The notes beneath the pieces were generated by a model. That model ran no database searches, was not told the DNA's origin, and saw nothing but the letters and a program-made list of their open reading frames with translations. The translations under genes were made by a program, and so were the position numbers. Positions 4,625 to 64,000 of a stretch of 64,000 nucleotides of DNA are shown piece by piece. This stretch comes from a virus (lineage: Duplodnaviria; Caudoviricetes), in IMG/VR virus record IMGVR_UViG_3300012983_000040, positions 22,315 to 86,314 of that record; one strand, 5' to 3'. Each line of letters begins with the position of its first letter. Positions within the stretch are counted from its first letter, which is position 1.

Positions 4625-5701
4625 TTAACATATTTCTTTTAATTTTCCTGATTTTAATAAGTCAGATTTATAATTATTTAGTAATCTGTGAATAAATGAG
4701 TTGCTCATTGTTCCTGTCATACTATTAAATATTTCTCTAGAATTTACTAATTTAGCAACTTTTTCAAGAGTTGATTTATAAAGTATATTACTGTCAATAA
4801 TTTTATTACTAAAGTCTCCATTTAATATACTATCTAGTAGTCTTCTAATATTATAATCAAGTTCATATTTTTGAGCATTAGACATTTTGGAGAAAGAAGA
4901 TTCTCTTCCTGCAAAGAATTTTCCTAATTCTTCAACTAAAACTTCTTCAGCTCTATCCATTTCAGTTCTATGTCTGAATTGGTTCATTTTGTATCTAATA
5001 TTTTCATCTTGAAGAACAATATTAAGTAAATCCTAATATAACTTTGGGTTTTCAAATCTAATGCCTCCCATAAAAAGATGCATAAGTTCATGAATTTTAG
5101 TGTCAGGAGTTGCATTATCAGTATTAATATATATTTCTCCATTCCTAATAAAACCTCTTAGTGTGGCTGCTCCAGGAAAATCGGGTAAAGTTGCTATATC
5201 TTTAGTAGTAACCTCATTAATTTTTATTCCATGCATCTCCTATGCTCGAGTTAATAAGTTACTAACTGCTCTATGTGCAATTGGCATATCCGAGACGGGA
5301 TCTATTTCTTTTGGAGTTATAGATGGACGTTTCTAGGCATTTATTAATACTTCATCGTCTATAATATTAATTTCAAAATTGTAATCTTTATGCAGTTTAT
5401 TTAATTCTTGAGCAATTTCTACTTCAGTTTCCTTTCCAGTATATTTTTTAACTAGCTCTAAAGAAGTATAGTAATTATCTCCTATAGGGTTTAATTTTAA
5501 TCTATTTTTTAGCTATGTAAATGAGTCCACCCCTATATTAGGGGGGAACTCATCTACATTAGGCAATCTATTAAAATCGTGTAGCCATTTGTCAACGATT
5601 GAGTAAAATAATTCTTCCTACTCTTTAGTATATGAGTCTGGAAGTATCTGTTGTTTTAACTCTTTAACCTAATTAATGTCTGTAATATCACAAAAATACA
5701 T
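4625..5701 (-). CDS. Zincin-like metallopeptidase (HEXXH), 358 aa, TAG=Gln
   Basis: ATG at 5701 (MYFCDITD...), TAA at 4625; fragments 5033-5236 and 4625-4987 are in frame. Motif RNGEIYIN...DTKIHELMHLF (5078-5092) with downstream AEEVLVEE. Confidence 0.85.
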
Positions 5702-47400: not shown

Positions 47401-48610
47401 CTTTATCGAGAGGTATAAATACAAATCTCATATGGTCTATCTTAGGATCATCTTCAAATAAAGTATACGTCCATTGAATAATAGCAGAATCTGTATTAAT
47501 TTCAAAATCCCAGTTTGTTATTCTATCATGTGCATTAAAGATTTCTTGTGTTGTTAACTCTCCAGTCTTCAAGAAACTATTATTTAATTTTAATACACCA
47601 TAAGGACTGCCAGGCATAATATCGTAGTATAGAGTTCCGTTATTTGGAATTTTTTTATTATCAGTTGCTGCAAGTAATCTAACTGCATCAATTTGCTTTC
47701 CTATTTCCTTAATATTATTTAAGTCATGATTGTAATCATTAATGTTTCCAAATAGCCCAAACGGCATTAATGAATAGTTATCCACTCCATCAGCCGTAGC
47801 TTCTCCTATAAATTTTACTTCAAACTAATTTCCAGATTTATAGAATAATCTGTAAAGATTGAATAATTCAAATGTATTAAATTCTACAACTATTTCTAAT
47901 GTTCCCTAAGGTCCTTTATATGTCTACAATAAACCTCTATGATTAGCTAATAAAGTTTCGAATGAAATATTATCGGTATTCTAATATATCCATAAGGGAA
48001 CTTGCCAATTGTCAGGATAAGTATGAAGTTGATTAGTTATATCTATCGGTTCTTCTCCATTTATAGGAATTATAAAAAGTTTTAACGTGATGATACCTTT
48101 ATCTATTGCTTCTCTTACATTATCACTGTAAGGCGTATTAGTCTTAATAAGAAACATATCACCCGAACTAAAGATCTTTGCTTCCTAAGTTACTGAGTCT
48201 TTGAAAATTTCTTCTTTATACTCGTTAGACTGAATTACTGGACACCTATTAAAAAATTTTATAAACTAATCTTGTATGTTAAACTCAAAAACTGCCTATG
48301 CTGCTTCTGATATATAAATTTGCTAAGGAGAAGGAAAACATCCAAGTTGCCCTTTCTTAGTTTCTGGATTATATGATGCTACATAAATGATACCTCCATA
48401 TTCCTTCATTCCAACTGGGACATATCCTTTAGGAGGTGCAGCAGTGCCGACTTCAACATTGCCCATATCATTTTGTAGAGTTAGTTCATTTCCATTATAT
48501 GTTACAAGAGTACCATTTAAACAGTTAGTTAATGTCTTTGCAGGTGTTCCTAGTGGATTTAAATCCAAAGACATTCCATCTGAAAAGGTATTAATTGTTT
48601 CTTTTCTCAT
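44480..48610 (-). CDS. Large tail protein with a crAss stabilization-protein-like N-terminus, about 1376 aa, TAG=Gln
   Basis: MRKETINTFSDGMSLDLNP...LTNCLNGTLVTYNGNELTLQNDMGN resembles the crAss stabilization protein N-terminus; six fragments in frame; TAA at 44480. Confidence 0.68.
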
Positions 48611-49163
48611 TTTCGTTTATTTCTATTAAATCCTTTAAAGTTAATACTCTATCTCTTACTTTTATTACTTGAACATTTTTGCATTTATATTTCTTTTTAT
48701 AAACTGTGTAACCATAGTCTATTGGCATTTTACATTTTATAAAATATTTCCAGCCATCATAAAATAAAAATGCTTCATTTTTGATTTTAAATAAAACTCT
48801 ATTAGTTACTTCTAAATTAGTTACAGGTCTACCAAATTTCTTTTTAATTTTATTATACTCTTCTTCTTTAATTGCAGTATAATAGTAGCCATCCCACTAT
48901 TTTTTCTTCTTTTTATACATTACTCTGATTTTCCGCATTAATTTTTTTCTATAATATCTATAATGCTTGACAGAATCAGTAGTAAGTTGACCGCAATACA
49001 TCCAAAAGTCTCCAGACCTGGTAACTAATGTATCACAATTTCTAAGATTATAAAAATAGAACATTCGCCATCCATAATTTATAATGCGAATTATATCCTT
49101 TCTTGGAACATTTGGAAACTATTCCTACAATCTATCTACATAATCATCTACTCTTTTAATCAT
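48591..49163 (-). CDS. Conserved basic crAss-like protein, 190 aa (possibly IHF/HU-like), TAG=Gln; absent from the ORF track
   Basis: MIKRVDDYVDRL[TAG]E[TAG]FPNVPRKDIIRIINYGWRMF...FWMYCGQL...; open to TAA at 48591. Confidence 0.6.
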
Positions 49164-49576
49164 TAATAATAGGTTTTACCAGAATTAGCTCTCTAGGTTA
49201 TTCTGTCTTTATTTTTAGGGTCTAAATATATAGGTTTTTCTACCATATAACCAGCTCTCTAGAATTTTAACATCATCTAATAACCTGTAAAGTTTGTATT
49301 TAAATAATCAACATCTTGCCATTTACCATTCTATCTTCCTTTTATAAAATCACTATCAAAATAACCTTTTATATAGATTTCTGCATTGCGATTTACAGTC
49401 GGCAATTCAAAAGTATCACTGTTGTCTATAATATCATCTAAGACCATCTTAACACAAGATAGCCAAATTTTAGATGCTAAGTCTTTTTTATACCTTTCCT
49501 TTACCTTTAATTTATCTATAGGAAGATTACACATTAAATCCTCTGTATTTAGAGCATAACCTAAAGCATAATTCAT
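49163..49576 (-). CDS. Conserved crAss-like protein, 137 aa (possibly IHF/HU-like), TAG=Gln
   Basis: Track ORF 49331-49576 extends through TAG (...GR[TAG]NGKWQDVDYLNTNFTGY...) to TAA at 49163. Confidence 0.6.
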
Positions 49577-50262
49577 TTAACAGGCTTATAAGATTTATTA
49601 AATACTTTACGATTCCAACTTGTTTTGGCATCGAGTATTTTATTCATATCATTTTGGCTTAAGTATTCAGTTACTCTTGCAGCATCACACAGCTTAAGCC
49701 ATCTCTGTTCTAGTGCTGCTGCGAGCTATATAATATTAGGATTATTAGTCCTTATTCCTTCTTTAAATTTTTCAACAAAGGCACAATAACATGCTATTGC
49801 TTCTTTTTCTTTATCATTTATATAAGGCAGTCCATCATCATCAAGTTCAGTGCCTCTATATAAAATCATGATTGGGCCACAGTCTTTATCTAAATAGAGA
49901 GTGTCTCCGACTCTACGATATTTTACATACATTCCTCTTTGATAAAGAGGATCTTCGTATTCTTTTCTTCCTTCAATGTATTCTTCAACGAATGAAGAAT
50001 GGTAGTCTCCATTTTCTGCTACGTTAGAAACATAATTCCAATCTTCATGACAATATGTAACAGCCTCTATCTAGTCACAGTTGCATGGTAACTATACCTA
50101 TTTATCTTCACAATCTACATCTACAATAAGTCTATAAAGTCTATCCTACTTATTGCCTATTTTTTGCCATGCTACCATACCCATTTCTTCGAAATCTTCA
50201 GGAGTTAATTCTAAATCATAAAGTAAATTAGCATGTGTGTAAGCTTCATTAAAATTTGTCAT
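49573..50262 (-). CDS. Tail tubular/ring protein, 229 aa, TAG=Gln
   Basis: ATG at 50262, TGA at 49573. QLPCNCDQIEAVT and LDDDGLPYIND...AIACYCAF motifs resemble crAss ring/P22 gp4-like proteins. Confidence 0.62.
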
Positions 50263-50951
50263 CTTGCAACTTGATCATTTGGTAAAATTGGCGTTGCCAA
50301 TTGTCTATAGTAATAAATCTTTTTCTTAGTCAATCTTTCTTTAACTTCAGAATCGATAAATGAAAGTTTGGCTTCATCACTTCCAGGACAAGCACAGCCG
50401 TAATGTTCTAGCATTCGTTCATCTTTAAATACAGCAACAACTGTTATTCTTTTTAAGAATGGTGCGTTAAATACCCAGCAGTCACACATACCACTAGCAT
50501 TTGGTGACATGTTAATGTATACATACGGTTTATTCTTTACTCTACGTTTATATTTGTGATAACGCATAACAGATGGACTTGTATACCAAATAAATGGATG
50601 CTACATATCTGATGAACCTATATATTCTATACCAAACCCACCAAAGTCAGTCATTAATGGTGGAATAACGAAATGCATAGTTGGTGTACCTTCATAGTCT
50701 AGTGGTTCTTTACCACAGGCCTCACAATTCTCAATGTCTTTACAATCTACTGGAATACAGCTAATTGTTTTAAGTAAGTCTTTTTTAGGAATTACGCCTT
50801 TTACAACATACTACTTAATAACTGCCAGTCTTTCTTCTGCTATTTCATCCTCTAACTATTCTAATGACATTGTAGGATTTGAAGAATATCCTCTAAGTCC
50901 TCCTACAATATCATTGTAAATAGCTGAAGCCATTTTACTGTAATATGCCAT
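50259..50951 (-). CDS. Head-tail ring/adaptor-like structural protein, 230 aa, TAG=Gln
   Basis: MAYYSKMASAIYNDIVGGLRG...; reads through TAGs into track ORF 50259-50567; located in the structural module. Confidence 0.62.
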
Positions 50952-50955
50952 ATAT

Positions 50956-50997
50956 AAAAATAAGGCGACGACCTTTGCGAATCGCCGCCTTGTTTAT
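50956..50997 (-). terminator. Rho-independent terminator after the auxiliary capsid gene
   Basis: Minus strand AAGGCGGCGA-ttcgcaaagg-TCGTCGCCTT followed by ATTTTT. Confidence 0.75.
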
Positions 50998-51023
50998 TAA
51001 GAGTTTAAATAGATAATTCTATA

Positions 51024-52415
51024 TTAGTTACCAGGAGTAATTACTTCGTTTTCGCCAAATGATCCTGGTTTTCCATTAATTATGCCAGGAACATCACCGC
51101 CACCTGGAACAATAGTACTGGTTTTAGGTCCTGTAGAAGTCTAAGGAGCTGCTGTGGCATAAGGCTCAGTATCGTTAGCAGTTCTAGTATCATCTGAGTA
51201 AGCTGCTCTTAATTGGTCACCGAAGTAAGGATGTACTGTAGGATCTTCATGTGGGGCAGGAACTAAACGTCCATTAGGTCCATCAACTACAGTGTCTCCA
51301 TTATCTTCGTGAGTTCCACATACATCCCAACCAAATGCGTTATGCAATGCCTGCTGGAAAGCGGCATCAAGACCTGCTGCACATTCGCAACAGTCCGCAG
51401 GAACAAAGAATACGTGAGTAGTCTTTGAGTGAGTTACTTCACCAACTGCAGAACCACCAAGAATGCCACGACAGGTAACATAATGTAATGTATATTGAAC
51501 ATACTTATTGCCTGGAACTGGCATTTCATTCATCTGTTGTGTTAATGAACCATATGCTAAATTCTCCATAGTAGGAAGACGAAGATCTCTGAGAATTTGG
51601 TCATAAGTACCAATACCATTTACACAATCTACAATATGTAAAAGATGCCTGGGAGATTCCTTTATACCTCTCATAATAGTGTCACAGTCTGTAGCACTAC
51701 AGTTAGTAACGCATACATTATCGTAGAGATCAATTTGGTCAAATGGAATCCAACCACCTTCTTGATAAGTGCAGCAATCTGATGTGCCATTTTGCCATAC
51801 TTCAAGAACAGCATCAGTGAACATACCGAAATTATCATTTACAAAGACAAGCTTGCCGATTTCGTCCATTTCGCTAACTTCTTCTCCAACACCTGCACTC
51901 ATAGTAGTTCCAGTATTACCAGCACCATCATAAGTGTTTAGTACATCATTATCTGCTTCTGTACCAACGTGAACGTCTAGGTAAATATCACCATAAAGAC
52001 GATTGATCTTCTTAATTTGTTTTGCAACATTAGCAGCGGTAGTAGAGTCATCACCTACCCACTCATAAACAAAGTCTTTACCTTTGAAGACTTCATCTCT
52101 AGCATAGTAAGAGTTGTTATCTCCTGTTCTACGTAATGAGAATTTTAGTCTAAATTGATACTTACCGTTACGGCTGGGAGTATAAGTCGAATCGTGTTCT
52201 ACAGCTGAATATACAGCAGCTATATCAACGACTAGACGGCCGGCTAGTGGATCTACATAAGGATTACGATAGATGGCTACTACGTTCTCTTTTTTAAATA
52301 GATTTACGCCATTTACTAATAAAGTGTTGAAGCTACCATGTTTATTGCCAACGGTAGGATTAGCAGCAAACTAATCTAAACTGTGAATTAAAGTTGTTGT
52401 TGTGAAATTAAACAT
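51024..52415 (-). CDS. Auxiliary capsid/abundant structural protein, 463 aa; only two TAG codons
   Basis: MFNFTTTTLIHSLD[TAG]FAANP...YTLHY...SKTTHVFFVP; TAA at 51024. Higher GC and codon style typical of highly expressed genes. Confidence 0.68.
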
Positions 52416-52426
52416 AATTTAAAATA

Positions 52427-53548
52427 TTATTTTGATTGTTGCTATTGTTGAGCTGGAGGCGCAATAGTCTAATTTATTGGAATGTTAGTTTGAAGTCTAG
52501 GGTCACTAGCATTCTCCATAACGAGTTTTACCAGCCCATTTATAATCTCCTAACATACATAATCTGGAAATTCCATGATCTATGATGTGTCTTGTGTCTT
52601 ATCTAGCTATTCTTGTGTTAGCCTTATATATTGTGGGGTTCTAAGATAGTCTACCATAACCTAAATTGGTTCAAAAGTATCACTATCTTTACCATATCTT
52701 ATTTCCATTCTAACTGCAGAAGCATTTCCATATCTTTTTCCTGCATAATGTTCCACCTAGTCTGGGTAAGGGCTACCTTCTGTATTCCTTGGATCGTTAA
52801 TCTTCTCAGAGTAGACGCTCCTAGATAGTCCCGACAAATTTACAGTTACATGATCGTCAACTTTATTTACATAAACCTTTGGGTCTACACCTTTTCCTAG
52901 TGGTGTTAATGGATCTGGATTGTTAATTAGTTGATTTATATCAGCAATACTTACTTCTCCATCATTATTGACATCATAATATGTATTAGTTTCACCTCTT
53001 GCAATAGCATCTTTTATTTCCTATGGAGTACGTCTCCCAATATATGGATTTTCCTAAAAGTCTTCTTCTGACCTGTTATTTACATTATGAATATAAAAGT
53101 ATGGACGCTTATATGATGGGCACATATAGGCATTATTTACTATAAGAGGCCACATATCTGCAGTTAGTCTTCGTGCAGGAAATTCTTGCACTGTTCCACT
53201 ATTATAACAGCTATAGCTTTGTTTTACTTTAAATGTAACCATACAGTTAAGTATATGATAATAGTCCTATGGTAAAGTAACTTCCCACAAATTTTGGTAA
53301 TTACTTCCAATTCCATTATCACCATAAACCGCAGAACTAACTTTTTTAGGAGTTAAAAACGCAGTTGACTTTAAAACTCTTAAACTATCTGAAAAATTTT
53401 GATTTGCATCATAATTATTATAGTTAAGATTAATAAACTAACTAATGGCTTTATTTAAAAAATAATTATAATCCTCTAAAAGCAAGCTGGGAGCTTCAAC
53501 TTTATTTAACTCCGTGAGCATTGCTTCATATATAGCTCTTGCTGTCAT
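52427..53548 (-). CDS. Ring/neck structural protein, 373 aa, with an inserted dockerin/EF-hand-like motif, TAG=Gln
   Basis: MTARAIYEAMLTELNKVEAPSLLLEDYNYFLNKAIS...VDYLRTPQYIRL...EFPDYVCQEIIN; TAA at 52427. Confidence 0.68.
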
Positions 53549-53559
53549 TGTTTGATAAA

Positions 53560-54393
53560 TTATTGTTTGTCTTGTTTATCTTTCTTTTTTGGTTCCATTT
53601 CTGGATAAGTATCTCTCTTAATAAGTTCAAGTACTTTTTTATTTTTTGGATCTTTTAAGAATGCAAGAACGGAATCTTCTGATACTCCTAGAATAATCTC
53701 GTCTGCGTAAGTAAAAACTTTATTCTTAACTACTATAACACTCTTTTCTCTAGCCTCAATAATAAGAAGTCTAAGGCCAGTATCTGAACCTGAGTATACA
53801 TCTATAATCTTTTTAGGATCTTTAGCAGCGATTCCAAGTAGATATTCGGTAACTTCTGAATCTGGAGCATTTTTCATGTTCTTACCCAAAAGTCTAGCGA
53901 TAAATACTCGACCTTCAGCACCTTTAGCATCGTCAAAAATATACTCTTCCGCATCATGGCGAAGTTTTAGAGTGTTAACTTTCTTAGCTACTTCTACACC
54001 GGGAGCCTCAACATAAAGTTCAGCAACTCCATAACGTGCATGTGTTTTTCCTTCTGCGATTTCTCCATCTATTAATAGATTGCCTTTTGAATCTCTAGCG
54101 TCTCTCGACGGTGCAATGATAGGAGCATATTTGATACATTCCCATTCTGCATTATCGTAAGGATCTTCCAAATTTAATTGTAATCCATCTTGTACTTCAT
54201 AAACTTTATTCTCTGGAACTAATACTCTTCCAGAATTTCTATCATCATCAGACATAATCATATCGCCCATACTGTTGATTCTGCGAACACAATCAGGATA
54301 ACGCCCCGTCTTGGGATCTTTTACAGGCTAAATATAATAAATCTGACCTACTTTACCATAAACACTTCTTAAAACAATAATGTTTTTATCCAT
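53560..54393 (-). CDS. Conserved crAss-like protein immediately downstream of MCP, 277 aa; one TAG at codon 22
   Basis: ATG at 54393 (MDKNIIVLRSVYGKVGQIYYI[TAG]PVKDPKTG...) extends track ORF 53560-54270. Confidence 0.8.
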
Positions 54394-54420
54394 TCTCTTA
54401 TTAATTCATTAATTGTAAAT

Positions 54421-54445
54421 AGATGGGAGGACTAGCCTCCCATCT
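54421..54445 (-). terminator. Perfect 10-bp stem-loop just 3' of the MCP stop (terminator or mRNA-stabilizing hairpin)
   Basis: AGATGGGAGG-actag-CCTCCCATCT; the minus-strand U-tract is weak. Confidence 0.6.
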
Positions 54446-54468
54446 TAAGTTTAAATCTTTATCAATTA

Positions 54469-54497
54469 TTAAGCTTCTCTTAAAATAAAACTTCTAT
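54469..54497 (-). CDS. MCP exon 6 (29 nt)
   Basis: |AT AGA AGT TTT ATT TTA AGA GAA GCT TAA, immediately after the intron-terminal G at 54498. Confidence 0.8.
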
Positions 54498-57400
54498 CAA
54501 TTTGTTACCTACTAGGCTCTTTATCCTAGTATTCTATAGTTTCTTAGTTAGGTTATTGCTATAGTTCAGACTATATCATCATCTATTTAAGATGTCGGGC
54601 ACTCGTGTTAGGATTATTGTGTATGCTACTCACCTATTAGTCGTTAGAGGTTTACTGTACTTTTATGCATTTCCAGTACTTCCTACGGGATTGTCCACCT
54701 CTGGAGATTCCCCGTTTTCACCCGATTTGCTACTGACGTCACCATCAGAAGCCTCATAGTTTTTTATTTTATATGTTTTATGATAGATCCATCCAGAATT
54801 ACAATATTTTCTCATATGATTGGGATTACACTCTGGGTGTAATTTACAGAAATCAGTAAGAGACATAACCACACTTTCATTAGTTTGAACATTTTCTATT
54901 ATTCTTAACTTTTGGTGTGCTTTTGATATTTTATCTCTTGTTTCTTGGCTGTATTTTTTGCCACGATGAAAATCACCAATTTTCTTTTTAGCTTCTTCAG
55001 AAATTATTCTACCCTTGAGTTTTTCTGAAATTGCTTTTTTGGTTTCTTCTGTATGATGTTTACCAAACATACCATTTCTTTCTCCAAACATTTTTCTTTT
55101 TTCTATCCACTCCGGAGTTTGTTTAACCCCAGTACAGTCTGGAGTATAATCAAAATATTGATTTATACATTTTGGATCATCTTTAACTTCTTTTAATCTT
55201 TTCACTTCTCCTCCATTTGCTAATTTACGAGTAGCAAAAGTTTCTAAAATCTGTTTTTCTAGGTCATGTCTGTGTTCTTTAATGTAAAGTTTAGTCAATA
55301 TAGAACTAGATCCCATATATGGATCATCTTCAATTTTACATTTACAACTTCTAACGCCTATATAAAACTCTCCTGTTTTAGTATTTAAAATTTTATAATT
55401 ATAATGATACATAATATTATTTTTATTAGTACAAATTTATATAAACTTCTATACTAAAACAAGTGTTCTTCACGAAAAATGAAAAAATTAAGTAGAAGTT
55501 AAGATATTAGCTCTATCTTAATATAAAACTTCTATAAGGATTGAATACAGCGATTCCACTGTAACCCCAGTTGATAAGTTTAGAACCAGCAACTGTAGAA
55601 GCTACTAGACCTGAACTTAGACCATCTAAACCACCAACACCTGGTAATTTGTTGCTGATGAAGTCACCACCCTTTAGGGTGAACATCTCGATAGCGGGAG
55701 TACCACTAGTCTTGTCAGCAGTAAGGTCTAAGAATAAACCAAATCCCTTATTATCGCCATACTCGCGGCTGAATGTCCGATCTACCTTAAATGAAATTGT
55801 ATTACCTGCAAACTCATAAGAATCGAAGGTGGCGCCCACATTTACATAGCCGTTAGCTGCCTTAGACCATAGATAAGTGCCACAGGTCTTAAAGTTAGCT
55901 AGCCAAGCACTAAGATTTCTCTGAACATCATGCCACATCTTCTCATTGCAGAGGAAAATGAACTTATTACCAGTAGCAGATTCTGCCTTCTGACACATCA
56001 TGCTCATGGCAGTCTGGAATGCATCAACAGTAAGAATAGTATAAACATACTTAGATGCAAAACGTTCTACCTGAGGAATAATACCATCGCCAATGTAAAT
56101 GGGACGACCAGTGTCAGGATCAGAGATAGTGGCCTTACCATTCTTATCAACGTTGCACTTGTTGAAAAGTAGACCATTATTTCTTACATATAAGAAGTTC
56201 TGAAGAAGGTTCTTCTCAACAGTATCCATCTTATAGATAGTTTCACTCATCTTGCCGTTGCCTTCACCCTTGCCAATAGAAATAAATACATTTTCCATTG
56301 CTTTATAAAGAGCTGAGTAAGTATCGTCAACACGGTGAGTAGAAATATAACCTCTATGTTTCTCTACGTTTGATTGATACTTAACATACATTTTGTTAAT
56401 CAATATGTTGCCATATTGTTCAGACTATATCTTAATCTAAATATTTAAATACAAACCCTTTACAATGATCTCGTTTTCCTAATGCTACTTGTTTTGCATT
56501 TTTATATCCTGCTTTAACACAGTCAGTCATTGTATTAAATGTCTCTAAGAGATTTCCGTCATCGTCAAACTTTCCAACTTTACCTCCTGCGTATGGTTTC
56601 TCTACTCCATTCATATTTCTATGTTTTAATTTCTTCATAAATGGTAACTTTTCATAAGAGAATTGGTGCCCTAGAAACTGGTGTCCTTCTTTAATTGCTC
56701 TTGGTAAGTGCCCTGCTCCTTTTGCTGATGGATTTAAAAATCTTCCAGCAGAATTTACACTATCAAATTCTCTTTCAAAATTACCATCTAAATCATACAT
56801 ATAAACTTTCTTTCTTGGATTTGCACAATCTGGCAATCTGCCTCCAAGTGCTAGGTTATAAACATCCTCACGTTTAAGAAATTCTTCATTTACTAGTTGT
56901 TCTTCTAGTTTATATGCTTCTTTTTCTACATCAAATATTTGTAAAGTTGTTCTAATAAAATTCTTTACTCCATACTTTTTTACTGCATACTGAAAAGGAG
57001 TTTTTGGATTCATATAACTAGCTGGCCTATAAATACTTACACCATTTCCTATGTACCCATCAAAAGCTTCTGGAGTTTCTGTTCCATGAACACCAATATA
57101 AATTTTATTATTTATTTTATTAACTGTTTGATATACTATATATTTCATTGTATTTAAATTTTAGATTTATTCCATTTCGGAGTTTATTTCTCCTACGTCC
57201 TTCGGACTAGTCGTTGAACCTTCCTTGGTACTTCTCTTCGAGCTTGTAATGCCCAAGGCTTGGCTGCTGATTGTCCTTAACTTAAGGAGTTCCCAGCAAT
57301 TAGAAATATTTTTTTAATTTTACACTGCTTAAGCAGCGGAAGAGAGCTATGTTAGGTATATGATGTTCTAACCCTCTTCGTGTAATTCAGGCCATTATGC

Positions 57401-60400
57401 TTTATGTTACCATAAAGATTAGACTATATCATTTACTTAATATTAATTTTTAAGTAAATACCCATTTCAATTATCAATATATTTGTATATATATCCTTTA
57501 TGTTTTTGATATTTGCCTGACAAAACATTTTGGACAGCTCCTCCAACTTCTTTTGCACACTGTCTAGCAGAATCCCATTGTTTTAAAATATTACCATAAT
57601 CATCTATTTGAGCTACTCTTTTTTTCCTATTTTTTGGAGTACTCGGCTTGTTATAATTTTTTAATTTTTCCAAACCCCAAATGTTTCCTTGTTCATCTGG
57701 TTGTTTTAACTTAATAGCTTTAGTAATATTACAATGAGGATTTTTTAATTGTGCTTCTTGCTGAGTTTCAAATTCTTCTAGAAATTCTCCATTTGAATTG
57801 TACTTAAATACTTGTCTGGAAGAAATTTGCAATGATCTGGCTTTATCAAATGATTCCGCTTTTATAAAAGAAAAGTAATATGATAGTTTAACACAATATC
57901 CTAATTTGGTAGCTTGCATTATATTAGCTGGTGCCGTATTTGAATATCTTCCAGCTTCACCATAGGATTCAAATTCTCTATCAAATTCTCCAGTCTTTAA
58001 ATATCTATAAACTTTCTGTTTATTTATATTATTTGTATAATTTGATAAATCTATTTGATCTAGCCTATCAGTATTAAAATATGTATTTTTTATTCTATAC
58101 TTATATACAACTGCTCGTCTTATTGATGACGGTTGGACATTTAATTCATGCCCTGCAACTTCGTATGATGGATATTCTTTTAAAAATAATCCATTTTCAT
58201 CATATTGAAATACTTTTATACCTTCAGTACAATTAATAATTCCTCCTAAAATCATATTATAAACATCATTTCTGGCTAGAAAATTTTCATTTACTATATG
58301 TCCTTCTAGTTCATAGGCTTCTTCTTTTGTATCAAAGGTAGCAATAACTTCTCTCTTAAAGTTTGAAGTTCCATATTCTTTTACTGCTTGTTGAAACTTC
58401 GTTTTTGCTTTTTCATAAGATGTAGGTACATTAATATAAACTCCATTTCCTAAGTACATATCAAATTGTTCAGGATTTGCTGTTCCATGTACTCCTACAT
58501 ATATAAAGCCATTTATTAAATTCGTTGTTTTATATACAATATATTTCATAATTTACGCCTTGCGGCTAGTCGTTGAACGTTATACAATTTATTTATCTAT
58601 AGAATTACTTCCATGTATTAAAATTAAATTATATCTTCGCTGCTGATTGTCCTTTATTTTTTATAAAGGAGTTTCCAGCAATTAAAGTATTTTTATTTCT
58701 ATTAGTCACCTAATAGTGCCACACTCAAAAACTACACGAAAAGTTTTTCAATGGCATTACTCTAAAATCTAGTAGTATCGCCGACGTGATATTCGTCTGG
58801 ATCAATATGATCTGATAAATCAGTGGTAATTAGTCTACATTCTAGTACCCAGTAATCATCAGCCTTACGAATTGGTCTACTAATGCATTGGAACTATTGA
58901 TAAGTGTTGTCCGATTTCCAAATATCATACTTCTGATAGTAATTTTCCTTAAATGCGAAGAAGATTGAAGTACCGTTAGCACCATCGCCTTCTGGAGTGG
59001 CTGCTAACTCAACTCTTTTAATGTACAAATTATTTTTAATAATTTAGACTATATCATTTACTATTTGTGTGATACTTAAATATATAATCATTAAAGTACC
59101 TATTTCCCTATTGTATATTTTTTATTTTAGAAGCTGGAACTTTATACTTTTCTTTTACTTCTTTTATAGTTTCTAAAGTTTCTATAAAGTTCCCGAATTT
59201 GTCGAATACATCTACCATTATTTTATTTTTCCATTTTTTGTCAGGTACTTGTTCTATTTCTTCTAAAGAAATATAAAAGTCTTTGTACCATCCTTTATTA
59301 TCCCTTAGAATATCTCGTATACGATTCCAAGAGTTTAATTTTATAATAGGCATTAGCTCTTTTCCAACAAATTCACCGTAGAATTTATTATTTTTGTCAT
59401 ACACATAGAATTTCATATTAATATACTATATTCGTGGTTTTGGAATAAATATATCGACTAGTTTGTCTGAAACATAATATTTACCATCGAGTAAACTCTA
59501 TCGTTGTATAGCTGTGCATATAGTACATTCGTCTTTCCCTATAAAGTCTCCACATTCTTTTCTTGATATAAATTCCATTAACCATTTACCTTCTTTTGAA
59601 TACAAATGGGTTACTTTTGGAGATCCCCAAGGAATAGTAGAATATTCAGAAACATCAATTGTTTCTTTTGTACTCCAAAGTGAATCTACTAGTGGATGTT
59701 TATCATGTATAGCATATTCAAATTTTTCCATAGGAATACCATAAAAATCATATGCTTCTATTGAATAGTCCCAAACCTTCTAAAGATTTCCATTTAGATC
59801 GAATTGATATAATTTTTTGTAATTATTATATGATATTCCACCTAAACATGCATTATATGTGTAATCTAATTTCAAAAAATTTATGTCTACAAGTTCTTTT
59901 TCTTTATTATAAGCCTCTTCTTTTGTGTCAAAAATAAATAAAGTAGTTCTTTCAAATGCAGCAGTTCCATATTTCTTTACTGCGTACTAAAATGGAGTTT
60001 TCGGATACATATATGTTGAGGGCTAGTTTATATATACTCCACACCCAATATATCCATCAAAAATACTTGGATCATTTGTCTAGTGTACTCCAATATATAT
60101 TCTATTGTTTCCATTTATTTTACTTTCTTTATTTTTAGTTAAATATACAATATATTTCATAGTAATTCAGTTTTTCAGTTAATTAATAACTTACGGGTCT
60201 CCCCTAGTCGTTGAACGCTTCTGTCATCACAGACACGCTGCTGATTTGCTATTGCATTCCAGCAATTTAAAGAATTATTCGATGCAACTTACGCTGCAAA
60301 GGAACCACGTTGATTCGTTTCCACTTCCCATTCAAAATACATACTATCAATACTTCTATATTTATCACTCGACTTAGAGTCACGGTAGAAAATGTTTCTA

Positions 60401-61456
60401 AGAGATTCTGTTAAATATGAAGCAGTCAATTCTGGATATAGCCTTGATACAATGCCTAATCTAGTAGGCTTAGTACCTAAAAACTTATAAAAATCTTCAT
60501 AAGTGCGAGTTTCCAATTATGTTACCATAAAGTCATTTAAACTTTATTTCTTATACTTTATCATCGTATAAGTTCAGACTATATCATCATCTCAGTGAGA
60601 TGTCTTGCACTCGTGTCAAATATCAATTACTTTGTAAGACATACTTGGTATTTTTTCTAATACATACTATCTAATTAAATTCAAGAATTTTCTACCTTCT
60701 GTAGTTCCGCATCTAAGCATAAACTAATCTTCATTTCCGCCATCAGCTTTAACTACATTCCATGTTATTCCATACTTGTTTAGAAAAAATTCTCGAAGTA
60801 ATAAATTCTGCTCAAATGGGAGATATGTAAAAATTCTTAACATATGACCACATTCTATGCGTTTTCCTTCTTTATATGTATATTTTTTTGAAACACATCC
60901 ATCATCTAACCACCAAAGAACTAAAGTTTCTAAATCTATAAATTCTAACAATTCTTTTGTTATTTCTTTTTTACCATTTCTATACAATAATTCTCTAATT
61001 GGTATAAATGATTTAGATTGTTTTCTAAATTTATAAGTGATAAAAGTATTACTCTTATACTATTTTCCATCTTTTCTTACAGAATGTGTTCTTTCCAGTT
61101 TATGAACTTTTATATCTTTTCCTCCGCAAACTGAATGAAGTAATTTCGCTTTAAAAGTACAATACTCTTTCTATTTCTCACAGTGTTCTACTTCTATTCT
61201 ACCTTTTTCACTTATATATCCATCACCAAGTAAAAGTCCAATCAAAATGGACATATCTTTATTAGTTATTCTCATAATAAACTTCTTAATATTTGTTAGT
61301 CGTTGAACTTTCCCATCCAAGGGCTTAGCTGCTGATTACCCGATAACTTGAAGGGCTCCCAGCAATTCACAAGATTTGCATATATCATTGCTGATATATG
61401 GGGCAAAATTACTTACCCATCGTAGGGCGTTTTGTAATAAAATTTGCTACAATCAT
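54469..61456 (-). CDS. Major capsid protein, 473 aa after splicing: join complement(61415-61456, 60313-60513, 58751-59025, 57371-57392, 55536-56388, 54469-54497)
   Basis: Exons total 1422 nt and join in frame to MIVANFITKRPTMG|ETRTYEDF...EWEVETN|YIKRVEL...TTRFQSNAM|PELHEEG|YVKYQSNVEKHR...GIAVFNPY|RSFILREA*, which matches the crAss-like MCP sequence as I recall it. Every 5' exon ends in U and every intron ends in G. Confidence 0.9.
54663..55412 (-). CDS. Intron-encoded GIY-YIG homing endonuclease with NUMOD3 repeats, 249 aa, no TAG
   Basis: YHYNYKILNTKTGEFYIGVR...YMGSS; NGMFGKHHTEETKKAISEKLKG and similar NUMOD3 motifs. Confidence 0.85.
   Translation of the reverse strand: MYHYNYKILNTKTGEFYIGVRSCKCKIEDDPYMGSSSILTKLYIKEHRHDLEKQILETFATRKLANGGEVKRLKEVKDDPKCINQYFDYTPDCTGVKQTPEWIEKRKMFGERNGMFGKHHTEETKKAISEKLKGRIISEEAKKKIGDFHRGKKYSQETRDKISKAHQKLRIIENVQTNESVVMSLTDFCKLHPECNPNHMRKYCNSGWIYHKTYKIKNYEASDGDVSSKSGENGESPEVDNPVGSTGNA
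55432..55463 (-). promoter_or_regulatory. Possible intron-internal Bacteroidetes-type promoter for the intron-5 endonuclease
   Basis: Minus strand CTTG-20 nt-TAAATTTG, about 20 nt upstream of the 55412 ATG. The -7 box matches; the -33 box has one mismatch. Confidence 0.45.
55536..56388 (-). CDS. MCP exon 5 (853 nt)
   Basis: YVKYQSNVEKHRGYISTHRVDD...GIAVFNP-T|. Confidence 0.9.
56389..57370 (-). mobile_element. Group I intron 4 of MCP (982 nt), ORF in L8
   Basis: 9-bp P1 (exon GAAGAGGGU with GCUCUCUUC, U-G at the splice site). AATTGCTGGGAA, ACAATCAGCAGC, GGTTCAACGACTA and AAGATATAGTCTG. P8 strands AATCTAAAATTTAAATAC / GTATTTAAATATTTAGATT flank the ORF. P9 has a GCAA loop. Confidence 0.92.
56432..57148 (-). 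CDS. Intron-encoded GIY-YIG homing endonuclease with two NUMOD1-like modules, 238 aa, no TAG
   Basis: MKYIVYQTVNKINNKIYIGVH; KVYMYDLDGNFEREFDS and KVGKFDDDGNLLETF repeats. Confidence 0.9.
   Translation of the reverse strand: MKYIVYQTVNKINNKIYIGVHGTETPEAFDGYIGNGVSIYRPASYMNPKTPFQYAVKKYGVKNFIRTTLQIFDVEKEAYKLEEQLVNEEFLKREDVYNLALGGRLPDCANPRKKVYMYDLDGNFEREFDSVNSAGRFLNPSAKGAGHLPRAIKEGHQFLGHQFSYEKLPFMKKLKHRNMNGVEKPYAGGKVGKFDDDGNLLETFNTMTDCVKAGYKNAKQVALGKRDHCKGFVFKYLD
57371..57392 (-). CDS. MCP exon 4, 22-nt micro-exon
   Basis: G CCT GAA TTA CAC GAA GAG GGT; completes the AT|G codon and gives MPELHEEG. Confidence 0.85.
57393..58750 (-). mobile_element. Group I intron 3 of MCP (1358 nt)
   Basis: P1 exon UGCCAU with GUGGCA (U-G at the splice site); P2 CTATTAG-GTGA-CTAATAG. 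AATTGCTGGAAA, ACAATCAGCAGC, GTTCAACGACTA and ATGATATAGTCT. P9 TTATG-GTAA-CATAA; terminal G. Confidence 0.92.
57467..58549 (-). CDS. Intron-encoded GIY-YIG homing endonuclease with four NUMOD1-like modules, 360 aa, no TAG
   Basis: MKYIVYKTTNLINGFIYVGVH; repeats KVFQYDENG, KVYRYLKTG, QVFKYNSNG and RVAQIDDYG. Confidence 0.9.
   Translation of the reverse strand: MKYIVYKTTNLINGFIYVGVHGTANPEQFDMYLGNGVYINVPTSYEKAKTKFQQAVKEYGTSNFKREVIATFDTKEEAYELEGHIVNENFLARNDVYNMILGGIINCTEGIKVFQYDENGLFLKEYPSYEVAGHELNVQPSSIRRAVVYKYRIKNTYFNTDRLDQIDLSNYTNNINKQKVYRYLKTGEFDREFESYGEAGRYSNTAPANIMQATKLGYCVKLSYYFSFIKAESFDKARSLQISSRQVFKYNSNGEFLEEFETQQEAQLKNPHCNITKAIKLKQPDEQGNIWGLEKLKNYNKPSTPKNRKKRVAQIDDYGNILKQWDSARQCAKEVGGAVQNVLSGKYQKHKGYIYKYIDN
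58751..59025 (-). CDS. MCP exon 3 (275 nt, two TAG codons; absent from the ORF track)
   Basis: YIKRVELAATPEGDGANGT...GDTTRF[TAG]SNA-AT|. Confidence 0.87.
59026..60312 (-). mobile_element. Group I intron 2 of MCP (1287 nt)
   Basis: AAATTGCTGGAA, AAATCAGCAGC, GTTCAACGACTA and ATGATATAGTCT; P2 has a GTAA loop; terminal G precedes TACATTAAAAGA. Confidence 0.9.
59054..60160 (-). CDS. Intron-encoded GIY-YIG homing endonuclease, 368 aa, TAG=Gln
   Basis: MKYIVYLTKNKESKINGNNRIYIGVH[TAG]TNDPSIFDGYIGCG...PKTPF[TAG]YAVKKYG; joins fragments 59498-59731 and 59108-59416; TGA lies inside the intron S element. Confidence 0.87.
60313..60513 (-). CDS. MCP exon 2 (67 codons)
   Basis: ETRTYEDFYKFLGTKP...EWEVETN. 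Confidence 0.88.
60514..61414 (-). mobile_element. Group I intron 1 of MCP (901 nt)
   Basis: P2 ATATATCA-GCAA-TGATATAT. GAATTGCTGGGA, GTAATCAGCAGC, GTTCAACGACTA and GATGATATAGTCTG. P3 TCTTG/CAAGA; P9 TTATG-GTAA-CATAA; terminal G. Confidence 0.9.
60616..61275 (-). CDS. Intron-encoded two-motif LAGLIDADG homing endonuclease, 219 aa, TAG=Gln (4 TAGs)
   Basis: ILIGLLLGDGYIS and LVLWWLDDGCVS motifs; ATG at 61275, TGA at 60616. Confidence 0.88.
61415..61456 (-). CDS. MCP exon 1 (14 codons)
   Basis: MIVANFITKRPTMG, followed by intron sequence AAG TAA. Confidence 0.85.
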
Positions 61457-61473
61457 AATTTAAAATTTAAATG

Positions 61474-62541
61474 TTAATCTAAAAAATCGTCAATATCATT
61501 AATACTTATTTCTCCGTTTTTAGGCTAAGCTTTCCGCTTACGTACTACTGACTTAGCCTTTGCCTAGTTATAGGATCTTCCACCTTTAGCGTCCTCATAA
61601 CCTCTGTTATAGTTGTTTTTTGCAACTTCTGAAATCTTTTGTTTATAATAACTACTTAGTTGTGCAAACATCTCTGGGCCCTTAATATTCATCCAGGCCA
61701 TTCTGACTAGTTGATCTGGGTCAGCTAATGTGTTATTAATTAGCCTATTTCCTTTTTTATCATACCCAGTTAGGAAATTATATATATCACGTTTATCTTC
61801 ATCTTGTAACTCTAGATCTAAATCGCCAAGATCTATAACTGAAGCTCTGTTAATAGCATCATAAATAGAACGCTGGTACTATTCTTGTTGCTGCTGCTAT
61901 TGCCTTTGAACTTCTTCCTATTGCTGTTGATTATATAAATCTTCTTTTTGTTTATAGTCTGTGCGTAGACTTTGTACTTTTTTATTAAACAAATCTTCAT
62001 TTTGCTGTGATCTGTCTAACTCTTCTAAAGCTTCGTCTTCAGTTATATCTGGGATTCTTGACTTCAAATCTACAAGAAATAGTTCTTCATCTGACAAGTC
62101 ATCAATCTTATATGTTTGTTCTTGTGGTTGCTATGCAGCAGTGTACTACTCAATTGCTTGTTGGGCGATGTACTGATTATAATCCTAAACAGACCAATTA
62201 TTAGTACGCATAAAATTAAGTAGTCCAATTTCCTAATCATCTAGATCTGAATCATCTTCAGATAGAGAATTTAGAATAGATAACTAATCTTCATCATTTA
62301 AATCGTTAAAGTCAGAAGTTTCTTCTCCGTCTTCAGTTTCAAATTTTACAGCTCGGGGATCTACACCTTTTCCTCGTAGAAATTCTTCCAGAGCGGATCC
62401 CTCAAAAGAGGACTCTTCCCCTTCTTGAAGTTGTTCTTCTTCTCCAGGATTATCTAAATCTTCAGTTGTTTGCATCTAGGAAGATACTTCCTCATCATCT
62501 TCCATAAAGTCTTCTAAGTTATCAATTTCATTAATATCCAT
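61474..62541 (-). CDS. Acidic, Gln-rich protein upstream of MCP (putative scaffold), 355 aa, TAG=Gln
   Basis: MDINEIDNLEDFMEDDEEVSS[TAG]MQTTED...; TAA at 61474; position directly before MCP. Confidence 0.68.
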
Positions 62542-62572
62542 ATAACATTAATTCATTTTAATTGTTTGTTCG

Positions 62573-62603
62573 CAAAGATACGATTATTTCTTTACTTTAC
62601 AAA
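62573..62603 (-). promoter_or_regulatory. Bacteroidetes primary-sigma promoter driving the scaffold-MCP operon
   Basis: Minus strand TTTG-taaagtaaagaaataatcg (19 nt)-TATCTTTG in the intergenic gap. Confidence 0.78.
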
Positions 62604-62637
62604 ATAATAGTTATAATAATTAGTAAATTTACTATAG

Positions 62638-63108
62638 TTATTTCTTTTTAACAATCTCTATTGTGATCTTCTCTTTCTTTAAATATGCTTTATTTAGTTG
62701 TGACCATAGAGTAGTAAAAGTTGTAAAAGAATTCAGTACTTTCCCAACTGCTTTATTCTCTCCAACGATTAAGCACCCAGAAGAATCTTCCTAAGTAGTT
62801 CCTGGATGAATTAGTATTCCATCAAATCCTGGAACGCCAAGTAGCCTAGGCATTCTTCCTTCAGTAAATTTATATTTTTCTTTTGTAGAATATTTTGGAG
62901 ATTTTACACCCATAGCAATCGTATAAGTACCTGTCGGAATTGCTGTTTGGTGTTTTATCTTTATTTTTAATATTTCACTTAAAGACATTGATTTACTTAG
63001 GTTTCTATCAACATCTTCTATAGTATCACAGAAATAAACTCCGTTTATATATAAATGTCCTATTGTATATTGCTATCCTATATAAGATCTAATTAGTTTA
63101 AGTTTCAT
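62638..63108 (-). CDS. DUF5675-family protein (His/Cys L,D-transpeptidase-like motif), 156 aa, TAG=Gln
   Basis: MKLKLIRSYIG[TAG]QYTIGHLYINGVYFCDTIED...TAIPTGTY...SPKY...MPRLLGVPGFDGILIHPGTT[TAG]EDSSGCLIVGEN. Confidence 0.8.
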
Positions 63109-63587
63109 AATAATTCACAAAAATAATGTCTAATATTAAACACACCATCCTTGTCTAATAACTTATCTGTTGCTAATGAGTGAACAAGTTTAAAATAATT
63201 TGCCTCATCAGATTCTATATTTTTTAATGTCTTACCGCTGTCACTATCTATCATGCACATTGTTACATATAATGCACATTTATTATAAAAAGGCTGTGCT
63301 TCTAAAGGTTCGTCCATTTTGTCCATTAAAGTCCTCCAGGCTTGTCTTGTCCATTTAGGAGCCGGCGACATCTTACTTACTAACTATTCTGCTTCTTTTT
63401 CAGTCAGATAATTGTTCCAATTAACTGCTTCTAGAATCTCTAAATATTCTTCTGCTTTTGATGGGTGAGAATCTATAGTCTAATACATAATCTTCTTGGT
63501 CATACAGCCAAGAACTTTCATTTTTTTCTCATCTCTACTGGATAAAATAGTAGAATATAAATCGTCAAATTTTTCTTTTAAAGTCAT
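63105..63587 (-). CDS. Hypothetical protein, 160 aa, TAG=Gln
   Basis: MTLKEKFDDLYSTILSSRDEKKMKVLG...; extends track ORF 63105-63371; TGA overlaps the next ATG. Confidence 0.7.
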
Positions 63588-63588
63588 A

Positions 63589-64000
63589 TCAGCCAAGTTT
63601 TTCAAGAATGGATTTTAATAATGTATTTGTTTCTTTCGATGCATTTTCTAAAGTTGTAATTCTAGATTCTAATGCCTATTTCTCTGCCCATTCGGTATCT
63701 AATTTACCAATTAACTCTTTATAGGATTTAACATTTTTCTCTTTTTGTTCCTTAGTCTAATCTACTGTTGCTAAAAATTCTTCATCTAGCTTTAAAGAAG
63801 CTCTAAGTTCTCTTAGAATAATGTCTTTTGAGGTTGCTAATAAAGCAATAGATCCTAATTTAGTAGTTGAAAACATCGAATCTGTTACATTTACAGTATC
63901 TGTATAATTTACACCGTCTAATTCATACGTAATATCTATTACATTTTTTGGCATTGCCATTTCTTTTGGCATATCCATCCTTGGAAGGCCAATATTTACA
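63589..64000 (-). CDS. Hypothetical coiled-coil protein, partial (start beyond the right edge), TAG=Gln
   Basis: Track ORF 63757-63978 extends through TAG to TGA at 63589; frame appears open to the window edge. Confidence 0.65.

Follow-up and report, generated by a model that had tools for sequence, protein, structure and literature searches.

In a crAss-like phage of gut or rumen, the fifth intron of the major capsid gene starts with an in-frame near-copy of the exon that follows it. To judge from comparison with related sequences, this copy most probably belongs to a homing element and serves as a replacement gene end that is translated. The intron (55535-54498, minus strand) lies in a 64,000-nt stretch of viral DNA, hereafter the window. 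Its first 29 nt (R1, 55507-55535) mimic exon 6 (R2, 54469-54497) over nine codons and a stop. For intron 5, we put at roughly two in three the probability of a mobile group I intron in which R1 replaces the codons displaced by insertion, with an unspliced product that is both made and usable.

Two endings of one capsid gene

The capsid gene matches Pfam Crass_capsid, and its exon 5 (55536-56388, minus strand), delimited by this match and by tblastn and blastn against intron-free alleles, ends in ...AAT CCT T, the terminal U at 55536 being the 5′ splice site. Reading on into the intron, the unspliced frame runs Y-R-S-F-I-L-R-TAG-S-TAA (TAG at 55515-55513, TAA at 55509-55507), giving ...ILRQS if TAG is Gln. 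Across the junction 55536|54497 the spliced frame runs Y-R-S-F-I-L-R-E-A-TAA and yields a product of the same length. This is the sole junction that leaves an exon-terminal U together with an intron-final G, and it is backed by intron-free alleles ending ...NPYRSFILREA. Both frames, and with them the alternative EA and QS endings proposed in the initial annotation, can be read directly from the sequence. The Gln reading of TAG assumed there is also supported, as in-frame TAGs of capsid exon 3 align with Gln of an intron-free homologue and an intron-free 473-aa allele (P0122) is translatable only with TAG as Gln. Other late genes within the window contain up to 11 in-frame TAGs each; because in-frame TAGs occur elsewhere, we read the TAG of R1 as Gln too. 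No tRNA gene, suppressors included, was found by aragorn in the 86-kb contig. The intron-free relatives among 80 capsid loci, as well as P0122, have a C-terminus of the form ...R/K-E-[AILVQ]-stop. Since all of these relatives share its kind of ending, exon 6, encoding (Y)RSFILREA-TAA, is regarded as the ancestral C-terminus. A terminator-like hairpin with a T-run 3′ of the capsid stop (54421-54445, minus strand) also occurs in intron-free alleles.

R1 and R2 were recovered by a repeat search as a direct repeat of 31 nt with 81% identity and a spacing of 1038, and exon 6 and R1 are identical at 19 of their first 20 nt. A scan of the 64 kb with a 20-nt pattern, allowing up to three mismatches, returned two sites, R1 and R2, against 0.28 expected; one of 100 shuffles reached two. 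The mimicry of exon 6 noted at the outset is thus borne out. Introns 1-4 of the same capsid gene carry no copy of the following exon, and none is present in a different intron of another locus (L081), which lies 13 codons short of the capsid gene's end. Base pairing had been credited with the first 8-11 shared nucleotides and denied the rest. The second part of that claim stands, and the first must be reduced: P1-extension or P10 pairing covers only the first four intron bases (ATAG with CTAT of the guide), and across related elements it explains 1-4 nt of the copy. The segment AGAAGTTTT is invariant among the window's four closest R1 copies.

A spacer (55413-55506, minus strand) separates R1 from the endonuclease gene and includes a third partial copy at 55453-55441. 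This copy is flanked by CTTG and by a TAnnTTTG-like motif at 55439-55432, which we take to be a candidate promoter, going by the -33/-7 consensus of Bacteroidota. In one related element (L004) the spacer is missing, and the endonuclease ATG lies 2 nt past the R1 stop.

These features bear on the possibility that R1 acts as a nucleic acid, either as a homing-site mimic serving as operator or decoy or as an RNA pairing element, its coding likeness being a by-product. There is a precedent in T4, where sequences upstream of intron endonuclease ORFs resemble homing sites; for I-TevI the match is 15/20, and the enzyme binds there and represses itself (PMC2988022). The 19/20 match, the placement of the third partial copy in a promoter-like stretch just 5′ of the endonuclease gene, and the unchanged AGAAGTTTT would all fit a role of this kind. 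However, the guide pairs with 1-4 intron bases only, and the L004 arrangement leaves no room for an occludable promoter. Moreover, among related elements the nucleotides of R1 diverge while its peptide and stop position are kept, the opposite of what a binding or pairing site predicts. We therefore consider such a role unlikely.

Ribozyme and endonuclease of intron 5

In intron 5 the guide and catalytic core come after the endonuclease gene, at a distance of about 780-1040 nt from the 5′ splice site. Rfam returned no group I match, either for the whole window at gathering score or for 48000-64000 at E ≤ 10, and the core structure was derived from homologues instead. The compact phage type may lie outside the coverage of the Rfam group I model. 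In blastn searches the core resembles introns of Flavobacterium, crAss-like and Clostridium phages, and the intron appears to be of an IA-like subgroup.

The internal guide sequence, CTAT|GAGG (54752-54759, minus strand), was placed with a covariation table of 18 elements. Its GAGG pairs with exon CCUU, with a U·G pair at the splice site, and its CUAU has as partner either intron AUAG (P1 extension) or exon-6 AUAG (P10). P1 covaries in 18 of 18 elements, exon CCU/CCG/CCA-U being matched by guide G-AGG/CGG/UGG around an invariant U·G; in the same table, an A or G at intron position +1 is paired with guide U or C. The core, analysed with RNAalifold, spans 54498-54751 (minus strand), with the terminal G at 54498. 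Its helices are P2 (54748-54733), P3 (54725-54719 with 54601-54595), P4-P5 (54715-54685), P6 (54684-54648), P8 (54594-54580), P9 (54564-54534) and P9.1 (54529-54512), all on the minus strand, while P7 is provisionally assigned to about 54642-54638 with 54573-54569. Compensatory changes affect 19 of 63 core pairs in 4 sequences and 37 of 59 in 16 sequences. In a test of the J8/7-P7 signature, GATATAGTC was invariant among the 16 aligned introns. Each of the 19 related elements with a ribozyme has a G before R2, as does the window at 54498; the 20th row of the 3′ splice-site table is L103, which has none. Because P1 covaries 18/18 and 37/59 core pairs are compensatory, the ribozyme of intron 5 looks functional and under selection.

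Two other pairings were rejected. The hairpin TAGAAGTT...AACTTCTA (55534-55493), considered as P1 and guide, provides no G for the U·G pair, shows no pairing to exon 5 and is missing in L004. Four sequences would allow an extended P1 that joins R1 positions +8 to +14 with ATAAAAT upstream of the guide, but its loop would be very asymmetric, and L004 cannot form it.

The same evidence bears on whether the window phage's ribozyme has ceased to splice, leaving R1 as the real C-terminus and 54469-54497 as a displaced relic, an alternative that the initial annotation had itself named. The absence of an Rfam group I match would accord with this state, and its viability is proved by ribozyme-less relatives such as L103 (see below). 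Yet no position at which the 16 aligned introns are invariant is altered in the window core. All helices, with P1 among them, are intact there and consistent with covariation, and exon 6 bears no damaging change. Loss of splicing in the window phage thus appears quite unlikely, and the relic interpretation is disfavored for this intron.

The endonuclease gene (54663-55412, minus strand) encodes 249 aa and is situated within the P1 loop; over its last ~35 codons it overlaps both the guide and ribozyme helices P2-P6. The product matches the homing endonuclease family PHROG 314 (E 1e-30), NUMOD3 (E 5e-10, above cut-off) and, by profile, the I-TevI DNA-binding domain 1I3J (E 3.4e-5). Matches to SegE_GIY-YIG are weak, being seen in 9 of 18 family members with a best E of 0.0035, below the Pfam cut-off, and PF01541 was matched by one of the 18 (E 0.41). 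The motifs FYIGV and YMGSS are present in the protein.

Related elements at the same capsid site

About 20 related elements were found at the same site, the endonuclease protein being the productive search probe; pattern scans of viral and metagenome contigs contributed one further R1 copy (L085). The order R1, endonuclease gene, R2 is found in the window and 18 relatives, and one element (L029) has lost the endonuclease gene and retained R1. R1 could be extracted from 19 elements, and all 19 distinct copies stop at the identical codon. Its penultimate codon is Gln in three spellings (TAG, CAG and CAA), and its final codon specifies Ser (AGC, AGT or TCT) in close relatives of the window. In L108, R1 and R2 mismatch at 8 of 24 bases, all of them synonymous, including AGT versus TCC. 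Across the set, which does not consist of fully independent samples, R1 and R2 agree at 83 of 112 amino acids, against 43.4 ± 3.4 expected from an equal number of random base changes (0/5000 simulations), and 44 of the differing codons are synonymous versus 29 non-synonymous. Part of the synonymous pattern could be a legacy of a period in which R1 was itself the native end of a gene. The penultimate residue is Q in R1 and E in every intron-free allele listed, so R1 may be merely a tolerated second-best. These results support the view that R1 is constrained as coding sequence by selection at the protein level. The initial annotation had envisaged a fail-safe or two capsid isoforms, and had asked whether other phage introns carry exon copies and whether the duplicated codons are conserved. 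The core of its proposal, an intronic copy constrained as coding, is upheld by the common stop codon, the amino-acid identity and the existence of ribozyme-less relatives. Exon copies recur in the 19 same-site elements, in contrast to the L081 intron, and peptide and stop are kept while nucleotides diverge.

Against this background, R1 might still be a neutral scar of a duplication at the time of insertion, kept by recent shared ancestry alone. Direct repeats of 4-30 bp are reported to be common at or near intron borders and have been read as insertion scars (PMC11782384). One same-site element, L106, lacks R1 and has an immediate stop, so R1 is not obligatory, and the constraint on R1 is below that on R2, as is its codon-position periodicity. 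Nevertheless, R1 has kept its length, frame and stop although the endonucleases of R1-bearing elements are only 44-98% identical. With substitutions placed at random and equally dense, amino-acid identity to R2 would be ~39% instead of the 74% seen, and the stop, be it TAA, TGA or TAG, invariably occupies the same codon. A neutral origin and persistence is accordingly very unlikely. That R1 matters for its stop codon only, as a parking site that holds ribosomes back from the intron while the ribozyme folds, is highly improbable. Phage and bacterial group I introns are known to have in-frame stops close to their 5′ edge, which have been seen as aiding folding (PMC3984707), and introns 1-4 of the capsid gene carry such early stops, but an immediate stop would suffice, as in intron 1, L081 and L106, and nine conserved sense codons mirroring the host peptide would be left unexplained.

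In some relatives R1 serves without any ribozyme. In L103 and L104, R1 encodes the exact native peptide with nine clustered synonymous changes and is the only capsid C-terminus; the endonuclease gene and an R2 relic come after it, and a ribozyme core is lacking. In L097-type elements the endonuclease gene lies past the capsid stop, and R2 is missing. Both types nest inside ribozyme-bearing lineages in the endonuclease tree. The segments GAGGCTTC and GAAGCTTC show a likeness between the guide/P2 region and R2, which probably reflects a palindromic TATA plus a purine run; this match is a possible candidate for microhomology in the loss of the ribozyme in L103.

Signs of mobility are seen at the same site. 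L020 consists of an L006-like capsid gene carrying an L074-like R1 and endonuclease gene, and it differs from the endonuclease-free L006 by nine synonymous changes clustered in the final 33 nt. Empty sites were found in L129-L132, the one in L131 at 2860-2925, and in L002/L003. The clustered AGGTCA/AGAAGT difference between the window and L129-L132 is suggestive of co-conversion, not proof of it, since these alleles are only about 95% identical to the window at the nucleotide level (blastn). At R1 base +21 a G-to-C/T change (Glu to Gln) is recurrent, marking a candidate immunity site against the element's own endonuclease.

Proposed mechanism and known systems

Based on these data, we propose the following scheme for intron 5 as a mobile group I intron with its endonuclease gene within the P1 loop. 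R1, at the 5′ edge of the element, would replace the nine capsid codons and stop displaced by the insertion. Ribosomes trailing the polymerase would pass from exon 5 into unspliced RNA and make full-length ...ILRQS; once the core has been transcribed and folded, splicing at 55536|54497 would give the native ...ILREA. R1 would be kept because the unspliced product gets made and must work in the capsid. It would also let same-site relatives persist without a ribozyme, R1 then being the sole C-terminus and R2 a decaying relic. The scheme implies that unspliced RNA is translated in vivo and that QS-ended capsid protein assembles into capsids; the base differences in R1 may, in addition, shield the carrier from its own endonuclease.

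A more comprehensive reading, which we advance only tentatively, joins dispensability of the ribozyme through R1, immunity through +21 and recoding, virions of mixed EA and QS endings, and a series of three states: an intron with endonuclease gene and R1; a ribozyme-less endonuclease gene with R1 and an R2 relic; and a free-standing endonuclease gene. If correct, it would describe a route from intron-borne to free-standing homing genes, the reverse of the usual model in which an endonuclease invades an intron. The +21 Glu-to-Gln change and synonymous recoding of R1 would then protect carriers, and virions would mix EA- and QS-ended subunits. The intermediate-looking natural forms at the capsid site make the order of events testable.

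Timing is a problem for group I introns in protein genes that bacteria and phages express strongly, in that ribosomes reach the splice site before the ribozyme is made. R1 would be a simple answer, the run-on product being a usable protein, and would account for the tolerance, in the gene of the most abundant virion protein, of a core a kilobase downstream of the 5′ splice site. For annotation, gene callers can be expected to place the capsid stop after ...ILR or ...ILRQS and to overlook exon 6.

The T4 td intron with I-TevI is likewise a phage group I intron in a protein gene, encoding an I-TevI-like endonuclease with NUMOD3-type DNA binding. As in intron 5, the ORF's 3′ end enters the core helices, there is an early in-frame stop, and a homing-site-like sequence lies upstream of the ORF. 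The td endonuclease ORF resides in the P6a loop, whereas that of intron 5 is in the P1 loop. In td, the sequence past the splice site encodes no substitute for the downstream exon, while intron 5 opens with a full substitute C-terminus.

Delta- and Zeta-group crAss-like phages have capsid genes interrupted by several endonuclease-encoding group I introns, and reassign TAG or TGA in late genes, according to the portion of Yutin et al. 2021 (PMC7886860) considered here. As that portion describes them, these phages belong to the same order as the window phage and have an intron-rich capsid gene and recoding in common with it. Introns are identified there by their endonuclease domains, and the same portion describes neither a last-exon copy nor ribozyme-less derivatives.

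Self-splicing introns and gene-end-replacing endonuclease cassettes are usually considered separately, and both occur at this one capsid site. Fungal mitochondrial mORFs with a duplicated gene C-terminus are found in atp6 of Allomyces macrogynus and in atp6, atp9, cox2 and nad3 of Glomus (PMC3630166). Like the intron 5 element, they place an endonuclease gene near the 3′ end of an essential gene with an in-frame replacement C-terminus upstream; the native C-terminus is displaced downstream, and the inserted copy diverges more in nucleotides than in protein. mORFs differ in being mostly without a ribozyme, so that the inserted C-terminus alone is translated and the native one decays, whereas intron 5 sits in a phage capsid gene, duplicates only nine codons and has a covarying group I ribozyme through which the native ending can also be regained. 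The WHO elements of Torulaspora and Lachancea carry an endonuclease gene that adjoins its target and replaces the target's 3′ end at each integration (PMC7282813). Like the L103 and L097 forms, they need neither protein nor RNA splicing, but they are nuclear, encode an intein-like endonuclease and contain no intron. Allele-specific cleavage has been demonstrated experimentally for WHO (PMC7282813). Intron 5 thus looks like the same gene-end device as that of mORFs and WHO elements, housed in this case within a group I intron that apparently works.

An interrupted capsid gene with two endings

The window's source is an 86-kb contig (86,314 nt; the window covers 22315–86314) of a crAss-like phage, in whose minus-strand late genes in-frame TAGs are abundant, with up to 11 per gene; those in exon 3 of the capsid gene align opposite Gln of an intron-free homologue. 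The late genes need TAG to be read as Gln, yet no tRNA gene of any kind, suppressor tRNA included, was found in the 86,314-nt contig; part of the genome may be missing from it, or a suppressor tRNA may be supplied from elsewhere. The capsid gene (Pfam Crass_capsid; 54469–61456) is interrupted by five introns, each carrying the core signature GATATAGTCT (at 60584, 59054, 57429, 56430 and 54576) and its own endonuclease gene. TAG reassignment and multi-intron capsid genes are already known for the crAss-like phage order (PMC7886860). A 22-nt micro-exon between introns 3 and 4 (57371–57392) supplies the last base of a Met codon followed by PELHEEG, matching intron-free alleles. Genomes ~95% identical to the window (loci L129–L132) carry an intron-free gene for a 473-aa capsid protein (1501–2922), indicating that all five introns are variable in the window's lineage.

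On the minus strand, exon 5 ends with the U at 55536, intron 5 occupies 55535–54498 (1038 nt, with a final G), and exon 6 (R2) occupies 54497–54469. The initial annotation had proposed that intron 5 opens with a near-copy of the last exon; indeed, its first 29 bases (R1) belong to a direct repeat with R2 of 31 nt and 81% identity (19/20 over the first 20 nt), a pattern seen in only two places in 64 kb (0.28 expected). Reading through intron 5 gives ...NPYRSFILR-TAG-S-stop and joining exons 5 and 6 gives ...NPYRSFILREA-stop, which confirms that the QS and EA endings have the same length. Among 80 capsid loci from viral contigs, all intron-free relatives end in R or K, then E, then A, I, L, V or Q. 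The uninterrupted 473-aa allele P0122, which ends ...ILREA, is the same protein as that predicted from the six joined exons; it comes from 100–170-kb genomes ~95% identical to the window. Since intron-free alleles end like exon 6, exon 6 is the ancestral ending and the splice junction is correct. A copy of the following exon was absent from introns 1–4 of this gene, and none was seen in an unrelated intron (L081) lying 13 codons from the end of its capsid gene.

Ribozyme, guide and endonuclease of intron 5

Judged by its sequence, intron 5 is a real ribozyme under selection. Its core went undetected by Rfam but finds matches among introns of Flavobacterium, crAss-like and Clostridium phages, and in a 16-core alignment 37 of 59 predicted pairs show compensatory changes. 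The guide, CTAT|GAGG (54759–54752, minus strand), lies in the end of the endonuclease ORF. In each of 18 related elements the guide agrees with the third position of the Pro codon that precedes the splice site (GAGG, GCGG and GUGG facing CCU, CCG and CCA, respectively), and it has U or C opposite an A or G at intron position +1. The endonuclease gene (55412–54663, minus strand) sits within the P1 loop; its final ~35 codons (54663–54759) are encoded by the guide and helices P2–P6, and the stop falls in the P6 loop; its C-terminal tail is kept across the protein family, presumably because of the overlapping RNA. Assignment of the catalytic domain is weak. Orthologues in L004 (4896–5650) and L085 (~4237–3480, minus strand) contain 3–4 in-frame TAGs vs none in the window's, so TAG content varies inside one endonuclease lineage.

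One explanation for R1 is guide pairing, through the P1 extension or P10. In the window the guide pairs with no more than 4 bases at the start of the intron, vs 8–11 nt in the initial annotation, and with 1–4 elsewhere; pairing therefore cannot explain the 29-nt copy, which runs out to the stop codon.

Five forms of the element and their mobility

DNA patterns retrieved few relatives, and the endonuclease protein as query retrieved many. They share one insertion site, 27 nt short of the capsid stop, and take five forms. Form C, comprising R1, endonuclease gene, ribozyme and R2 (the window, L004, L085, L088–L094, L102, L105 and L108–L115), is spread over capsid clades with differing C-terminal peptides, with endonucleases 44–98% identical to the window's. 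Form D (L029) has lost the endonuclease gene and kept R1 and ribozyme, while form E (L106) has both ribozyme and endonuclease gene without R1 and meets an immediate in-frame stop. Two forms lack the ribozyme: form B (L103/L104) retains R1, the endonuclease gene and an R2 relic into which the endonuclease ORF reads, and in form A (L097-type) the capsid ends RSFILRCKE-stop, followed by the endonuclease gene without R2. A second intron lies a few dozen bases upstream of the site in L088 (~1250–1370), L090 (~1250–1365) and L092 (~980–1080); in L088 and L090 it sits just before the NWGY codons, and the intervening exon is short (~50 nt in L088).

In a quick endonuclease tree, forms A and B nest among ribozyme-bearing lineages (SH-aLRT 86–92); given this moderate support and the long outgroups, ribozyme loss is favoured as their origin, not proven. 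R1 is the sole C-terminus in form B (L020/L104, one contig). Over ~490 nt of the capsid gene L020 hardly differs from L006, which has no endonuclease gene; the final 33 nt of the gene in L020 then carry nine synonymous changes relative to L006, and L074, though more distant, has these very changes. Such a distribution would be expected if R1 and the endonuclease gene had been acquired together recently, the left conversion tract being very short.

Near the intron 5 site, L129–L132 and the window are almost identical over 121 nt upstream and 89 nt downstream of the stop; within the repeat they differ by a synonymous block at +5 to +8 (AGG TCA vs AGA AGT), which may mark a co-conversion tract or else a resistant allele. 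Intron-free L003, compared with L004 (~4855–4885 in each), equals R1 at +8 and R2 from +12, with near-identical downstream flanks, a mosaic that fits intron loss by R1 × R2 recombination or simple polymorphism. R1 of the window's clade differs consistently at +21 (G to C or T); such base differences may confer immunity against the element's own enzyme.

Coding constraint on R1 and its parallels

Sequence comparison further indicates that R1 evolves as coding sequence. The duplicated codons are conserved in related introns: the peptide is retained, and the stop (TAA, TGA or TAG) holds an identical position in 19/19 distinct R1 copies. R1 also tracks the peptide of its own host (KSYIARQI vs RSYIAREI in L094), and in L108 both copies encode KSFILEEV although 8/24 bases differ, all synonymously. 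Across 14 representative elements, 44 of the 73 codons differing between R1 and R2 are synonymous; amino-acid identity is 83/112 vs 43.4 ± 3.4 expected if R2 receives an equal number of random substitutions (0/5000 simulations reach the observed value), the R1 samples being related to one another. Constraint is weaker on R1 than on R2. In the window's clade, the penultimate R1 codon is Gln (TAG, CAG or CAA) and the last is Ser (AGC, AGT, TCT), T, I or L. An I or L there is the host's native residue, and S and T replace the hosts' A and V. Gln at the penultimate position is confined to elements with a ribozyme, form B keeping Glu (small numbers). The native exon 6 of L089 (2416–2445) reads ...R-TAG-A-stop, with Gln (TAG) replacing the otherwise invariant Glu.

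R1 starts T|GA in L108, L110, L111 and L115, making the junction Tyr codon TGA, and base +1 = G covaries with guide C in these elements. TGA also occurs in frame at a conserved capsid Trp in L108 and at the junction codon of R2 in L115; it is probably a sense codon, Trp, in this capsid clade.

An I-TevI-style operator (PMC2988022), after the endonuclease of the T4 td intron, does not fit as the reason for R1, whose peptide is conserved while its nucleotides diverge. The idea may apply to TATAGAAGTTTAT (55453–55441), where part of the splice-junction sequence is repeated a third time; the endonuclease ATG follows ~20 nt downstream. Flanked by CTTG and a TAnnTTTG-like motif, this partial copy lies in a stretch (55432–55453) that could be a promoter with such an operator; a similar stretch is kept in L088 and L089, the copy is absent in L085, and in L004 the entire spacer is missing.

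The best reading of R1 is that it supplies a replacement gene end and is translated. Because the core lies ~1 kb behind the splice site and transcription and translation are coupled (PMC3984707), ribosomes would often pass the site before the ribozyme exists. A run-on capsid protein complete but for nine residues could be wasteful or poisonous, and a full-length run-on product would avoid both. The same device, a replacement gene end, is found in fungal mORFs (PMC3630166) and yeast WHO elements (PMC7282813), to which intron 5 adds an apparently functional intron.
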